The notes: generated by a model not told the origin, from the sequence alone. Shown: positions 1,541 to 14,167, counted from the first letter of the stretch. The stretch is DNA of 64,000 bases from a virus (IMGVR_UViG_2846802666_000001:1549-65548), one strand, 5' to 3'. Numbers and translations are program-made.

Positions 1541-1616
1541 GCCCGGATAGCTCAGTTGGTAGAGCAGCGGATTGAAAATCCGCGTGTCGGTGGTTCAAAT
1601 CCGCCTCCGGGCACCA
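1541..1616 (+). tRNA. tRNA-Phe(GAA)
   Basis: Canonical cloverleaf GCCCGGATAGCTCAGTTGGTAGAGCAGCGGATTGAAAATCCGC...GGTTCAAATCC...CACCA, anticodon GAA. Confidence 0.98.
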
Positions 1617-1618
1617 TT
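1569..1618 (+). repeat. att core, copy 1 (attL of satellite), 50-bp direct repeat
   Basis: Identical to 14118-14167; equals the 3' half of tRNA-Phe plus TT. Confidence 0.97.
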
Positions 1619-1673
1619 CTAAGCCCTTGGTATGTCTATCTTTTTCCATTATTTAGCATCCGTTCATAAAACC

Positions 1674-1705
1674 GGGTTTGACACTTTTCTCAAGAAGGTT
1701 TGACA
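1674..1705 (+). repeat. Probable integrase arm-type sites (GTTTGAC repeats)
   Basis: GGGTTTGACA 1674 and GGTTTGACA 1697, matched by GTTTGACA 14028 and GGGTTTGAC 14067 inside the other end. Confidence 0.6.
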
Positions 1706-2772
1706 ACTTTCGTTTTTCGTCTGTTCACTTCGGCTGCAAAATCCTTCACTGCGGCGACGGTGTTTTTCGACATGTCGGCACGGCGGGAATAGTGCTTTGC
1801 CATCGCCTCGGTACGCTGTCCGAGAACGTTCGCGATGGTTCCGTAGTCCATGTTCATCTCTCTCAGGATGGTCGCGACGGTGTGGCGTAGACCCTTCAGC
1901 GTGAGGCCAGGTTGGACGCTGCCAGCTTCTTCAAGTTTAAGGCGGATCGGTCGCCATGAAGCTCTGAACCCTGAAACCGTCCACGGCTTGCCGTGGGTGT
2001 TGGCGCACAAGGTGATTGCCGAGTGAGGTGGCGCAGCTGCGAGAGCTTCCTCAACAGGCTTCACCAGAGGCAGATAGACCGCTTCACCAGTCTTTCCCCG
2101 TCGCGTGTCGATCATGCCCGCCTGAACCGCTGTGCGGGGCAGGGAGAGCGCGTCTTGCGGATCGAGGCCGTAGAACATCATGAGGGTGACGGCAGGCAGC
2201 ATATGCGGCGGCAGGGCGGCAAGAACCGCGTCCCGCTCCGCGTCCATCCACGGCCGGTTCGCTTGCGGCGCGTTCTTCGGGCGTTTGATAGCCTTGATGC
2301 CGGTCGCTGGATTGTCTTTCACTTCGCCGCGCTCTTTGCCCCATGCGAACAGCAGGGAAAGGACGGTGCGCACGTAGGAGCCGAATTTCCGGCCCTTGCT
2401 CTCTCCGGCCTTGTCGCGGATCTTGACGATCAGCGGCGGCGTGAAGCTGGTGAGCGGCGTGTCCTCAATGCTTTTCAGGTAATCGAAGCATTTCTGATAG
2501 TCGGAGCGCGTCCGGTCGGAAATGTCATCCTGAAAAGCACCGCTGGCGCGATACTTCTTGATCAGCGCGCCGAGCGTGCCGGCGCGGGTGATTTCGCTTT
2601 TCTGATGAAGCTGGCTTATGCGGTAACATTCGCCGTAGAACTCCATCGTCCAGAGCGGGAATTTCTCCAGGTCAATGACGGAGCCTGTTTTCCGATGATA
2701 ACACCGCCACCTGTGAGGCGGCTTCTTATCCTGAAAAATCTGAAAGCCCTTCGGGCGCTTCCTGTCTGCCAT
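1690..2772 (-). CDS. int: Tyrosine recombinase/integrase of the satellite
   Basis: LKGLRHT...LGQRTEAMAKHY catalytic region; adjacent to att site. Confidence 0.92.
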   Translation of the reverse strand: MADRKRPKGFQIFQDKKPPHRWRCYHRKTGSVIDLEKFPLWTMEFYGECYRISQLHQKSEITRAGTLGALIKKYRASGAFQDDISDRTRSDYQKCFDYLKSIEDTPLTSFTPPLIVKIRDKAGESKGRKFGSYVRTVLSLLFAWGKERGEVKDNPATGIKAIKRPKNAPQANRPWMDAERDAVLAALPPHMLPAVTLMMFYGLDPQDALSLPRTAVQAGMIDTRRGKTGEAVYLPLVKPVEEALAAAPPHSAITLCANTHGKPWTVSGFRASWRPIRLKLEEAGSVQPGLTLKGLRHTVATILREMNMDYGTIANVLGQRTEAMAKHYSRRADMSKNTVAAVKDFAAEVNRRKTKVVKPS

Positions 2773-3008
2773 TAGCCGAGCTTCGCAATAATCGCGTCGT
2801 CGCCCGAGGCCTCGCCGCCCTTCAGGGCGTCAAGAAAGGCGTCGAGATCCTGCATATCGTAAACCTTCCCGCCGGACGGCATCGCCACCGGCTTCACATG
2901 GCAGTCGATAGGGAATTTACGGACAGAAAGGCCGCAGTAATCTGCGGCCTCCTTCAGCGTCAGCATGCGCCGGGGCGCAACTCTAATGTTGAGCGTTGCG
3001 CTTGCCAT
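2772..3008 (-). CDS. Excisionase-like HTH DNA-binding protein
   Basis: RMLTLKEAADYCGLS...VYDMQDLDAFLD; directly upstream of int. Confidence 0.8.
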   Translation of the reverse strand: MASATLNIRVAPRRMLTLKEAADYCGLSVRKFPIDCHVKPVAMPSGGKVYDMQDLDAFLDALKGGEASGDDAIIAKLG

Positions 3009-3547
3009 TAGTTCTGTTCCTCGATGAATGGCGGAAATCCGTCTCTGATCTTCCGGATTATCTTAGGTGCATAGTTCCAGATTTCCTCGGCGGCTGCGCC
3101 ATAAACGCAGAAGATCGACGAAAAATAGAAGCACCCGGCGATAGGCTCGCCGGTCCGGACGTTCACATGGTTGAAGCGCTCAAGCCAGCACTCGACAATT
3201 TCATTTAACCTGCCGCTCACCTGATAAAGACCAGGACCATCGTACTCGGCAAATTTGCGATAGCCTTGTATAGACATCCAGAAAGTGCCATCGCCCCGGC
3301 TCTCCAAGTGATGATTACATCCTGTTGTCTCAGGATGCATTTGCATCAGGATCGACCGCAGCTGCGCCACGCAATCATCCATTTGGCTTTCGAGGCTCTG
3401 GGGGACGCGGTCAGTTTTGGCAGCTGCTTCGGCCACGGCGACGGTCGGGACAGCAGCGGCCGCAGTCGCCGCAAGGAAGGATCGGCGCGACATCGCGCCA
3501 ATGGCACTTGCGCCACCGGCCATTTTCTGATTAATCTTCATACGCAT
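3008..3547 (-). CDS. Hypothetical protein
   Basis: Long ORF abutting the excisionase gene; start position uncertain. Confidence 0.6.
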   Translation of the reverse strand: MRMKINQKMAGGASAIGAMSRRSFLAATAAAAVPTVAVAEAAAKTDRVPQSLESQMDDCVAQLRSILMQMHPETTGCNHHLESRGDGTFWMSIQGYRKFAEYDGPGLYQVSGRLNEIVECWLERFNHVNVRTGEPIAGCFYFSSIFCVYGAAAEEIWNYAPKIIRKIRDGFPPFIEEQN

Positions 3548-3590
3548 TGAATGACCTTTCACGGGGTTAGGAAAAGCCGACGCTGGTTTA

Positions 3591-12449: not shown

Positions 12450-12595
12450 CGTTAACCGCAGGCGTTAACCAAGCGTCAACCCTGACAACCCTGACAACCC
12501 AATTTTTCGACCTGTTTGACTGGCGCTTTTCCGGGGTCGTCCCGCCCCGCAGAGGGTCAAATCCGGGTACGGTCCCTACACCCAGGGGGTTGGGT
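12450..12595 (-). other. cos-like packaging site of the satellite
   Basis: Reverse complement aligns with the non-coding region upstream of prophage terS (35630-35773). Confidence 0.8.
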
Positions 12596-12610
12596 CGGTG
12601 GCCTTTTCGG

Positions 12611-13096
12611 TCACACTTCGCCATCGTCCTCACCCTCCTTTTCGAGGTGAAGATGACAGAGCGTGCGAAACCATTGCCATTGCTTATCGCTCAGGTGGAA
12701 CTTGCCCTTCGAAGCCTTTGCTAACGCCAGAACGTTTTCGACAAAGTCTCGCTGCTTGTCCGTCAATCCGCCGCCTTCCAGCAACAGGCGTCGAGCATCG
12801 CCTATGACCTCATCACGCGTTGGATGCTGGCTTTCAGCAGGACACGGCTCTGGCTCTGGCGGGTCGCGATAGACGATCTTTTCCTGAACCACGACACGCT
12901 CGCGATACACGATGACCTCTACCGTTGCAGGCGGCTTTGTCAGCGCGGCGGTGAGATCGTGCCATCCCAAACCAGCGCCGCAAAGGGTTCGCCCAATGGC
13001 CGAAACCGCCGCTACCACTTCGCCGGCATGGTTGCTGGATAGCATCGGCAACAGCTTCCCGAGCTTTTTCACTGTTTTCTGATCGATATCGCCCAT
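12611..13096 (-). CDS. Hypothetical protein
   Basis: KLGKLLPMLSSNHAGEVVAA...LSDKQWQWF; typical of genes next to phage Rep genes. Confidence 0.65.
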   Translation of the reverse strand: MGDIDQKTVKKLGKLLPMLSSNHAGEVVAAVSAIGRTLCGAGLGWHDLTAALTKPPATVEVIVYRERVVVQEKIVYRDPPEPEPCPAESQHPTRDEVIGDARRLLLEGGGLTDKQRDFVENVLALAKASKGKFHLSDKQWQWFRTLCHLHLEKEGEDDGEV

Positions 13097-13116
13097 CGGT
13101 TCCCGGTATCCCGATT

Positions 13117-13857
13117 TCAGCCGTACGCCGCCGAGGCGGTTGAGCCTTTCCACCCCCATCCCCGAGTTGTGGGTTTGTCTCTCGGCTCATCAGGCTGGTC
13201 ATTCCGGTTCGATGGGTGGCAAGGGTGGCCCTCATACTCCCTCTCAAAAGCCGTTTTTTCCGGTTTGTCGTTCTCAAAGAGAGAGGTTTTAACTTGAGTC
13301 CATGAAGTGCGTAATTTTTTGAACCCTATCTTCATGGCAAGCCACTTCATCCAGCTAAAGGAAATCACCTTGATGACGTTCGTCAGGCTCTTTCCAAACT
13401 GGCGGCGCCGCTCCTTCACGGAAATATGCCCGAGTTCCTTCGAGCCTCCCTTGCGAAGCGCGTTCTGAACGGTTGTACGGCTCACACCGGCTATGCTGGC
13501 GATTTCATCCAGGCACATTTCGCAGCGGTTGCCGTGCCGCTTACATTCTTCGGCAATGACGGCCAGCGCCGCGCCCTCGCCGGCGGAATAGTGTTCCCGG
13601 ATCTCGGGCGGCATATTGGACGGCCCGCTTATCCGGCGCTTTCTGGCGCGCCGCTCACGGCTCTTGTCGGTTGACATGCGCTGACGCCGAGCTTTCTTGA
13701 CGACGCTCTCTGCCGCCCCGCTGGCCGTCTGCTTCTCGTAAGCCTTTGTTGCGGGTCTGGTGGCCTTACCGTTGGCGAAATAATCGTCATGGGATCGAGC
13801 GGAGCGGGAAACGATACGACTGCGAAGCAGCGCGGATGATGGCCTGTATTCCGTCAT
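13117..13857 (-). CDS. Putative replication initiator (HTH)
   Basis: CLDEIASIAGVSRTTVQNALR helix-turn-helix followed by SLTNVIKVI. Confidence 0.65.
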   Translation of the reverse strand: MTEYRPSSALLRSRIVSRSARSHDDYFANGKATRPATKAYEKQTASGAAESVVKKARRQRMSTDKSRERRARKRRISGPSNMPPEIREHYSAGEGAALAVIAEECKRHGNRCEMCLDEIASIAGVSRTTVQNALRKGGSKELGHISVKERRRQFGKSLTNVIKVISFSWMKWLAMKIGFKKLRTSWTQVKTSLFENDKPEKTAFEREYEGHPCHPSNRNDQPDEPRDKPTTRGWGWKGSTASAAYG

Positions 13858-14147
13858 TCACTCGCTCCCGGCTTTGAGAGCGAATGAGCAAGCTTCGCCG
13901 CCTCGGCGGCTTCCATGACCGTCAGGGCGAAGCGTCGGCGGATTGTGACGACTGGATGAGAGACCAAAGGATTGCGGCAAAGCCACATGGCTGCCTCGCG
14001 AACGCGGGGCTCAATGGCTCGCAATGAGTTTGACAAGTCGCCGCTAAGTGATTGACTTTCAAACGCGGGTTTGACGGAAATTTTTTCGTAAGGCTTTGTT
14101 TTTGGCGCTTCACGCGGGGATTGAAAATCCGCGTGTCGGTGGTTCAA
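13854..14147 (-). CDS. Hypothetical protein whose reading frame runs into the att core
   Basis: Stop overlaps the Rep start (ATGA); no ATG near the 5' end in the integrated state. Confidence 0.45.
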   Translation of the reverse strand: MNHRHADFQSPREAPKTKPYEKISVKPAFESQSLSGDLSNSLRAIEPRVREAAMWLCRNPLVSHPVVTIRRRFALTVMEAAEAAKLAHSLSKPGASE

Positions 14148-14167
14148 ATCCGCCTCCGGGCACCATT
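14118..14167 (+). repeat. att core, copy 2 (attR of satellite and attL of prophage)
   Basis: Identical to 1569-1618. Confidence 0.97.

Follow-up and report, generated by a model that had tools for sequence, protein, structure and literature searches.

A 12.5-kb integrative element beside a prophage in Agrobacterium, probably a member of an undescribed phage-satellite family

The stretch of DNA analyzed here (64,000 nt, IMGVR_UViG_2846802666_000001:1549-65548; hereafter the window) corresponds to G000:C1:158280-222279, a segment of an Agrobacterium chromosome in a 6.1-Mb, six-contig genome. It contains a tRNA-Phe gene, a small element inserted at that gene and, directly after the element, a complete prophage. 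This report concerns the element, which carries a terminase small subunit (TerS) gene, a tail fibre gene and a cos-like region related to those of the prophage.

The tRNA-Phe locus

Direct att repeats of 50 nt delimit the element as a unit of 12,549 bp. The 25-nt core of these repeats occurs twice in the window, against no occurrence expected from 100 shuffles. A third att copy, consisting of the last 18 nt of the repeat, lies at window coordinate 64887-64904, ~900 nt beyond the window end, and closes the complete ~50.7-kb prophage; an att 17-mer has only three sites in the whole 6.1-Mb genome. The related genome G020, which has only a small element at tRNA-Phe, matches the window up to position 1568 and again from ~66333. 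Therefore, the element and the prophage represent one tandem insertion, made up of a 12,549-bp unit and a ~50.7-kb unit. Past the window, the ~1.4 kb that follow the third att copy (64905-66332), up to where homology to G020 and G025 resumes, have no counterpart in these two genomes.

When the element was compared with the rest of the window by blastn and tblastx, only three matches were found: the fibre gene, TerS and a 144-nt region. We scanned 26 open reading frames (ORFs) of the element against Pfam and 25 against PHROGs, and did not count weak sub-threshold matches or matches to PHROGs of unknown function. Named matches were confined to an integrase, two Arc-like proteins, a MazF-like protein, TerS and tail or tail-fibre families, and none of these ORFs matched the terminase large subunit (TerL), portal, capsid or, the fibre aside, tail genes. 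A sequence-only reading of this DNA had placed a 12.5-kb att-flanked element with an Arc/Arc pair, but without capsid, portal or TerL, between tRNA-Phe and a full prophage that uses the same att core and matches the element in three parts. The present results bear this out: the repeats are exact, the prophage is complete, its third att copy lies outside the window, the three matches are real and the sole ones, and both members of the Arc pair gave strong Arc-like matches.

Fibre gene, cos-like region and TerS

The fibre genes of the element and the prophage align over their full length without gaps, at 77% nucleotide and 82% amino acid identity, and the homology stops at the ORF borders. Residues 1-155 are 88% identical and residues 156-298 are 75% identical. 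The element protein matches PDB entry 9b45, 'gp47 Tail fiber' (9.5e-11). In the prophage, the 298-aa fibre gene directly follows a baseplate wedge gene, and the homologue in phage RR1-A likewise comes after a baseplate wedge gene. Comparison of the two genes gave proportions of synonymous and nonsynonymous differences (pS and pN) of 0.61 and 0.107, and a dN/dS of 0.09. The synonymous sites are thus near saturation, so these parts were not recently copied from the resident prophage; a recent copy was considered and rejected on the basis of the pS value and of third positions that are only 36% identical in the C-terminal half. The substitution pattern indicates that the element fibre is under purifying selection and is an old, selected gene, neither a recent copy nor a pseudogene.

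The 144-nt region (element 12450-12593, prophage 35630-35773) shows 79% nucleotide identity. An alignment of the prophage with three relatives revealed a fixed order of parts, namely a conserved GGGACCGTACC, a GC-rich core, GCCAGTCAAACAG and five heptamers ~9 nt apart, with a GCCAGTC box between the core and the heptamers. The corresponding parts of the element are GGGACCGTACC at 12566-12577, a 12-mer at 12536-12547, GCCAGTCAAACAG at 12512-12524 and five heptamers at 12450-12498. In the prophage the region ends at the terS start codon (35774), and in phages the heptamers abut the terS ATG. Furthermore, 15/15 other terS loci, drawn from the genus and from a 400-genome family sample, have the first of these motifs, as GGGACC[GT]T, 110-189 nt upstream of terS. 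Searching phage records by blastn identified a match in Rhizobium phage vB_RleM_PPF1. The first 12 nt of its linear record recur as the last 12 nt, and are followed by the GCCAGTC box, heptamers, terS and terL. In the prophage and the element, the part of the GC-rich core that aligns with this 12-mer lies at 35676-35687 and at 12536-12547, respectively, the latter differing by one base. A 12-nt terminal repeat is what a record written from cohesive end to cohesive end would look like, and the 144-nt region is therefore best read as a lambda-type cos. The five spaced heptamers, located between the putative nick site and terS, are predicted to be TerS-binding repeats (cosB). In the element, the cos lies 2.4 kb upstream of terS, with g129b, F15, F16 and F17 between them.

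Alternatively, the 144-nt region might be a late-gene control site, either a promoter or a site for a NusG-like antiterminator, that times the element genes to the late phase of the helper, much as P4 uses P2-activated promoters. A NusG-like gene (34644-35297, +) lies immediately upstream of the prophage cos, and in PPF1 a 'transcription antiterminator' is annotated ~900 nt from the record end, a position that in the circular form would be just upstream of cos. In addition, two sibling elements (described below) contain a second copy of the cos core (L014:4912-4975 and 8990-9045 in G025; L044:10703 and 12472 in G083) without the repeats; in G025 the second copy is also missing the GCCAGTC box, and it sits directly before the fibre gene, oriented like the first copy and 4.08 kb away from it. 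However, the ends of the PPF1 record fall exactly within the core, the heptamers covary with a TerS helix (see below), and the last repeat abuts the terS ATG, which leaves no room for a separate leader. We consider late control quite unlikely as the role of this region, and it would still make the element a satellite. A search for RNA families in the cos region gave nothing at the Rfam gathering thresholds; the window has only two tRNAs and the RNA of a diversity-generating retroelement.

The TerS proteins of the element and the prophage are 48% identical; the start of the former (MSD) was set by alignment with phage TerS. Their C-terminal third, the part expected to bind TerL, is well conserved. 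In contrast, they differ in the recognition helix and in the repeats next to it. Among 14 related loci, a helix of the form K[A/P]A[V/I]SK is accompanied by GTTAAC repeats in 8/8 and by GTTGTC in 0/8, whereas [K/R]QAxSK is accompanied by GTTG[T/A]C in 6/6 and by GTTAAC in 0/6, a covariation between TerS helix and cosB heptamers that we regard as suggestive. The prophage has the helix KAAVSK and five GTTAACG repeats, while the element has TKQAVSK and two GTTGTCA repeats, one GTTGACG and then two GTTAACG. The element thus appears to carry a TerS-cosB pair of its own type together with two repeats of the helper type. TerS is followed by TerL in 14/15 other loci, and by a fibre gene in the element only.

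A conserved TerL-binding part combined with a different DNA-binding helix might also be expected of a decoy. The element could be an interference or defence island that is not transduced, in which TerS and the fibre misdirect the terminase or poison tail assembly of PPF1-like invaders and the accessory region adds exclusion. This region does contain membrane-type and lipoprotein-like ORFs and a MazF-like gene, and known satellites also interfere with their helpers. On the other hand, a complete cos with repeats matched to the element's own TerS would be purposeless unless element DNA is packaged, unit sizes in the family are narrow (8-14.5 kb), and PADLOC found no defence system in the element, its single match being a weak 1TM effector. 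Interference alone is therefore an unlikely account, and interference and transduction are not mutually exclusive.

Sibling elements and gene content

We searched 48 genomes of the genus and ~400 genomes of the family for siblings by DNA and by protein. Ten complete att-flanked elements of 8.2-14.5 kb, and one split over two contigs, were found in Agrobacterium and related genera, at eight tRNA types (Phe, Ser, Val, Thr, Gly, Gln, Met and Glu; Table 1). Among the genus elements (n = 8, including that of the window), the Arc pair is present in 8/8, family F2 (g205) in 7/8, and family F3 (g97) in six by clustering and in one more by tblastn. Five of the eight encode an HTH_36 protein of 261-304 aa, which PHROGs describes as replication-initiator O-like. 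In one of these genes, in G066 (L021:15744-15843), we observed iteron-like tandem repeats with unit lengths of 23 nt (2.9 copies) and 13 nt (2.3 copies), which resemble an origin within an initiator gene.

Table 1. Elements related to that of the window, their insertion sites and their phage-type cargo.
Genome	Site	Length	Cargo
G020	tRNA-Phe	10,415 bp	HK97 capsid, tape measure
G028	tRNA-Phe	10,529 bp	S78 protease; capsid-like ORF (tblastn and eye only); 658-aa ORF without a Pfam match
G025	tRNA-Phe	split over two contigs	lambda-type protease, decoration protein and capsid E (lambda C-D-E head module); cos; F17-F16-F15; fibre
G023	tRNA-Ser	10,735 bp	ClpP-capsid fusion
G033	tRNA-Val	10,675 bp	ClpP-capsid fusion
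G066	tRNA-Val	10,854 bp	ClpP-capsid fusion; TerS
G031	tRNA-Thr	8,215 bp	
G291	tRNA-Gly	13,029 bp	tape-measure-like gene, with F15 and F17
G083	tRNA-Gln	13,626 bp	tape-measure-like gene, with F15 and F17
G268	tRNA-Met	14,464 bp	
G390	tRNA-Glu	10,345 bp	primase, tape measure, Neck1, cos, TerS, capsid

Most siblings have a different selection of phage structural genes. Neither the four siblings from outside the genus (tblastn with the prophage portal) nor the sibling ORFs scanned yielded a portal. The fibres of G066, G033 and G025 share their N-terminal 155-176 residues (50-57% identity) and differ in their C-termini, and in each of these genomes the fibre homologue is present once, within the element. 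Both the window's element and that of G066 are organized as two arms diverging from the Arc pair, of which the leftward arm, in the circular form, leads via int and attP into genes for a helix-turn-helix (HTH) protein, TerS and structural proteins. The exact order int-arc-HTH-terS-fibre (int-arc-rep-terS-fibre in the synteny suggested earlier) was found in no other genome searched, but relatives with the same architecture do exist.

These comparisons bear on the possibility that the element is a decayed prophage, no more than what was left at tRNA-Phe after deletions had removed the structural genes of a PPF1-like phage. The phage-type cos, TerS and fibre genes are compatible with such an origin, as is the ORF-free stretch of 478 nt that precedes terS, and rhizobial genome surveys, to judge from the available part of PMC11476347, class small phage-related regions as incomplete prophages. 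However, tblastx against the window's prophage detected no remnant of a TerL, portal, capsid or tail gene. While cos and terS are adjacent in 15/15 related loci, here they are separated by genes not of phage type; terS runs into the fibre start with a clean 4-nt overlap; and the fibre is under strong purifying selection. Moreover, the integrase is only 23% identical to that of the prophage, and the same backbone recurs at a similar size at eight tRNA types in several genera. Decay is thus very improbable, and the earlier view of an intact small element, rather than the remains of a prophage, was upheld.

The features of the locus are listed in Table 2. Beside attL, the pair of 15-nt repeats may include arm-type sites for the integrase. 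The 78-aa ORF next to int is 86-99% identical in three sibling elements and could be an HTH protein of the Xis/AlpA type, and the N-terminus of g205 reads, by eye, like a twin-arginine signal. The palindrome between the two arc genes is a putative operator, and the 207-aa Arc protein a candidate maintenance repressor. In the circular form, the genes would make up two arms that diverge at this switch and converge at 8573-8580, the exceptions being g163 and g166, on the opposite strand in the accessory region. The MazF-like gene and its 82-aa neighbor (7924-8580, +) are 97% and 82% identical to a pair in the G025 element (L014:177-803), far above the identity seen elsewhere in these elements. 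This gives the two genes the look of a cassette that was exchanged recently, and no antitoxin family was recognized for them.

Table 2. Features of the element and of the neighboring prophage (window coordinates).
Feature	Position	Strand	Evidence
tRNA-Phe (GAA), integration target	1541-1616	+	ARAGORN; Rfam tRNA, 71.7 bits
attL, exact 50-nt repeat of the tRNA-Phe 3' end (last 48 nt of the tRNA plus 2 more)	1569-1618	+	
Two 15-nt direct repeats beside attL	1675-1711	+	repeat search
Tyrosine integrase, 360 aa	1690-2772	-	PF00589 8.9e-8; phrog_1 4.2e-32
78-aa ORF adjoining int	2772-3008	-	HTH_17, E 0.0064, 17.2 bits against a cut-off of 27 (sub-threshold)
g205, backbone family F2	3008-3625	-	cluster F2; phrog_38066 7.6e-6
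Arc-like ribbon-helix-helix protein, 60 aa, leftward arm	3591-3773	-	phrog_3178 1.2e-14; cluster F1
Divergent control region, palindrome 3790-3803 / 3811-3824	3774-3876		
207-aa protein with Arc-like N-terminus, rightward arm	3877-4500	+	PF03869 2.3e-14; PHROGs Arc-like
Low-GC (~0.50) accessory region with ORFs resembling membrane-bound, secreted or lipoproteins	4531-8580		
MazF/PemK-like gene, then an 82-aa ORF	7924-8325 (MazF-like)	+	PF02452 7e-15
Tail fibre, 298 aa	8573-9469	-	phrog_4900 7.8e-14, phrog_38233; PDB 9b45
TerS, 198 aa from MSD start	9466-10062	-	phrog_57 1.7e-10
478-nt stretch without a convincing ORF, no similarity to any compared locus	10063-10540		
Four ORFs: g129b, F15 (10927-11466), F16 (coiled coil, 11447-11863), F17 (11853-12332)	10541-12332	-	
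cos-like region	12450-12600	-	blastn/tblastx match and alignment
g182	12611-13159	-	no family match (Pfam, PHROGs, PADLOC, NCBIfam)
g246, winged-HTH protein	13117-13857	-	phrog_15967 2.8e-34 (function-unknown family)
g97, backbone family F3	13854-14147	-	phrog_24797 4.1e-6
Second 50-nt att copy, junction common to element and prophage	14118-14167	+	
Complete cos-type myovirus prophage	14168 to ~64904 (beyond window end 64000)		
Prophage int	14266-15354	-	
Prophage cos	35630-35773		
Prophage TerS	35774-36379		
Prophage TerL	36376-38361		
Prophage fibre	54165-55061	+	

The block of g129b, F15, F16 and F17 is kept in G025 and G152. Among 50,697 phage records, F15 and F17 had no tblastn match, and the left half of the element had no blastn match to phages. 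A profile scan of genome contigs with F15 found 7 loci, including two tiny Rhodobacter contigs, and the ESM Atlas places F17 and F15 in unnamed families. The predicted model of F15 is all-alpha with long helices (pLDDT 84); neither a fold search of the PDB (E <= 0.001) nor a PDB sequence search gave a match, and the predicted helical fold is neutral with regard to a scaffold-like role, which it neither supports nor excludes.

The winged-HTH protein g246 is a candidate initiator or regulator. Its 70 homologues are named hypothetical or HTH, its predicted fold gave generic winged-HTH matches in the PDB only, and a PDB sequence search gave nothing significant. It can be linked by hhalign to the Rep-O-like family that occupies the same position in the siblings, over 48 columns (probability 61%, E 8e-5), but no iteron-like tandem repeat array was found in it. 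This weak profile match is the only link of g246 to replication. Thus, of the 'HTH Rep instead of AlpA-primase' that had been read from the sequence, the winged HTH and the lack of a primase match stand, while Rep is unproven and the absence of AlpA is uncertain in view of the 78-aa ORF. In the 48 genus genomes g246 has two distant matches only, so there is no closer relative of this right arm among the species representatives. The true start of g97 is probably further in, because the ORF runs into the att repeat.

One g246 homologue with 53% identity (P0013, named Rhizobium lusitanum) lies on a contig of 12,549 bp, the same number as the element unit, and several others lie on contigs of 10.3-12.6 kb. 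The closest (P0002, 80% identity) is from Rhizobium sp. P007, the named host of phage RR1-A, whose 'tail protein' is the phage-record match to the element fibre; P007 and RR1-A are possibly a natural helper-satellite pair.

The neighboring prophage, 50,719 bp as a unit, encodes TerS, a lambda gpA-like TerL (phrog_15), portal, ClpP-type protease, major head protein, sheath, tape measure and baseplate. It also contains a diversity-generating retroelement (20079-23693). This comprises a reverse transcriptase (PF00078), a pair of Mtd-like target genes (PF21916) and an Rfam Phage_DGR RNA (21107-21221, -, 67.5 bits), together with a family of 206-nt repeats located at 21244, 21812 and 22798. After the fibre gene and a 190-aa gene lies an AT3-SGNH acyltransferase (55685-57589, +), which is probably a conversion gene that modifies surface polysaccharide; such a role would hint that the fibres bind this polysaccharide. 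A tRNA-Met gene (25799-25874, +), the single copy in the genome, is probably phage-borne. It was rejected as a boundary that would split the prophage into two elements, since its ends are not repeated within 90 kb.

Proposed life cycle and comparison with known satellites

Since the element encodes no capsid and, the fibre aside, no tail, yet has a cos and a TerS of its own, it most likely spreads in particles borrowed from phages that supply these parts. Altogether, the element is intact and integrative, and most likely exists as a satellite of cos-packaging myoviruses with lambda-type heads, of the PPF1/RR1-A type, and the element and its kin likely constitute a phage-satellite family that has not been described. 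The neighboring prophage is one phage of this type. It had been taken as the probable helper, and its tandem position and matching phage type agree with that role; because its TerS and cosB are of a different specificity, it is a plausible helper only.

The anatomy given above was seen in the sequence, and from it we infer a switch, read-through across attP, a TerS-cosB-TerL hijack, packaging as tetramers and incorporation of the fibre. In the lysogen, the 207-aa Arc protein would keep the leftward promoter shut, while the rightward arm, with the accessory genes and the MazF-like gene, would be expressed. Lytic growth of a helper would flip the Arc/Arc switch, and expression of the leftward unit arc60-g205-xis-int would lead to excision. 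On the resulting circle, leftward transcription would run on across attP into g97-g246-g182-cos-F17-F16-F15-g129b-terS-fibre. The element TerS would then bind its own cosB repeats and recruit the helper TerL via its conserved C-terminus, followed by cutting at cos and packaging, most simply of four units per full-size head; alternatively, the helical F15-F17 proteins might reduce head size. The fibre, made together with TerS, could be mounted on helper baseplates via its conserved N-terminal 155 residues, and particles from that cell would bear the receptor-binding domain of the element. Four units amount to 50,196 bp, 99% of the prophage's 50,719 bp; this match is weak because the multiplier is free.

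Several points weigh against this interpretation. With a free integer, about half of all lengths between 8 and 14 kb are estimated to come within 2.5 kb of 52 kb, and the sibling G268 fits a multimer size poorly. Excision, replication and packaging of the element are predictions, and the proposed switch has no assigned induction signal or sensor. The cos end was deduced from the form of one deposited phage record, that of PPF1. One locus (L034) breaks the helix-repeat rule, with KAAVTK next to GTTGTCA, and another (L035) fits neither helix class and has another repeat variant; since the 14 loci are related and not independent, and the repeat search was designed by us for GTTNNC[GA], the covariation is suggestive and not a statistical result. 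The resident prophage may not be the helper, because the 12-mer differs by one base and TerS and the repeats are of the other specificity type. The terS-fibre pairing was seen in no locus but the window's element. F15-F17 have no assignable function (no Pfam, PHROG or NCBIfam name), and no relative of F15 was confirmed among 57 candidates in viral contigs. Finally, the element ORFs gave no primase or helicase match in Pfam, PHROGs or NCBIfam, and no replication gene was identified.

Comparison with known satellites shows likeness to several of them. P4 is ~12 kb, integrated and without virion genes, has a helper-like cos, and is packaged as multimers in full-size heads if size redirection fails; its gene set includes the alpha primase-helicase, Sid, Psu and Delta. 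The element resembles P4 in size, integration, lack of virion genes and a cos with the layout of the prophage's. In contrast, no Sid, Psu, Delta or alpha primase-helicase was found in it by Pfam and PHROGs, and it has Arc-type regulators, as well as a TerS and a fibre of its own, both of which P4 lacks. PICIs and SaPIs are 10-15 kb, with an integrase, divergent regulators, a TerS that redirects the helper TerL and accessory genes; Gram-negative PICIs have an AlpA-type activator. The element shares the end-placed integrase, the divergent regulatory pair, its own TerS, the similar size and the accessory genes, but its divergent regulators are of the Arc type rather than the Stl/Str or AlpA type (the 78-aa ORF, with its sub-threshold HTH_17 match, may be an AlpA-type protein), no primase-Rep was detected, its packaging site is a cos with matched cosB repeats and not pac, and it has a tail fibre and a Rhizobiaceae host. 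The cf-PICI gene set consists of capsid, protease, portal and head-tail connector. Sibling elements likewise carry capsid and protease genes and presumably take helper tails; however, the window's element is without capsid genes, and tail parts (tape measure, fibre, Neck1) are present in several siblings, which is the reverse of relying on stolen tails alone.

PICMIs are minimal satellites of ~6 kb with int, AlpA, Fis and TerS and a virulent-phage helper (in part after the abstract of PMC10803314), whereas the element is 12.5 kb long, has >20 ORFs and gave no Fis match in Pfam. In the portions available of the reports on PICMI (PMC10803314), VEIMEs (PMC9618062) and Pseudomonas AH14b (PMC4936722), these satellites are small, lack capsid-remodelling genes, are packaged as multimers in full-size helper heads and in several cases encode TerS. 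By analogy, the element may share this multimer packaging. The same portions describe headful or concatemer systems, and they state no matching of cos to TerS and mention no fibre genes. The one precedent found for a satellite-encoded fibre, in a different role, is MiniFlayer of Streptomyces, which according to the accessible text of PMC10690885 encodes a tail fibre protein and, like the element, no recognizable replicase. In that account MiniFlayer has its own small capsid, no lysogeny module and fibres on the helper neck, while the element fibre is a homologue of the helper's baseplate fibre.

By analogy, then, the element would act like a cos-type satellite (P4, cos-PICIs) with a SaPI-like redirection of TerS. 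It fails the P4-like, PICI, cf-PICI and PICMI gene sets as far as these can be tested; to that extent the earlier placement outside the described families is sustained. A more specific scenario, which we put forward tentatively and consider rather doubtful, is a Rhizobiaceae family of 'spare-part' satellites, whose members keep a common Arc/Arc backbone but swap matched TerS-cosB pairs and cassettes of helper-compatible virion parts (fibre, tape measure, capsid, protease, decoration protein, Neck1). In this scenario, the element of the window would claim the helper terminase by a private TerS-cosB code and be packaged as a tetramer in full-size heads, and its fibre on helper tails would retarget the particles.

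Satellites are known in detail from a small number of Gram-positive and enterobacterial hosts and from Vibrio. In the full-text literature we found no description of satellites of Agrobacterium or rhizobia, which is no proof that none exists. If our interpretation is correct, it adds a satellite family to the plant-associated Alphaproteobacteria and offers a readable code, between TerS recognition helix and cosB repeats, for packaging specificity. It would also mean that satellites contribute tail parts, among them a protein homologous to the fibre of the helper itself, which raises the question of whether they change the adsorption of particles built by the helper, and it would bear on the movement of genes among Agrobacterium strains.

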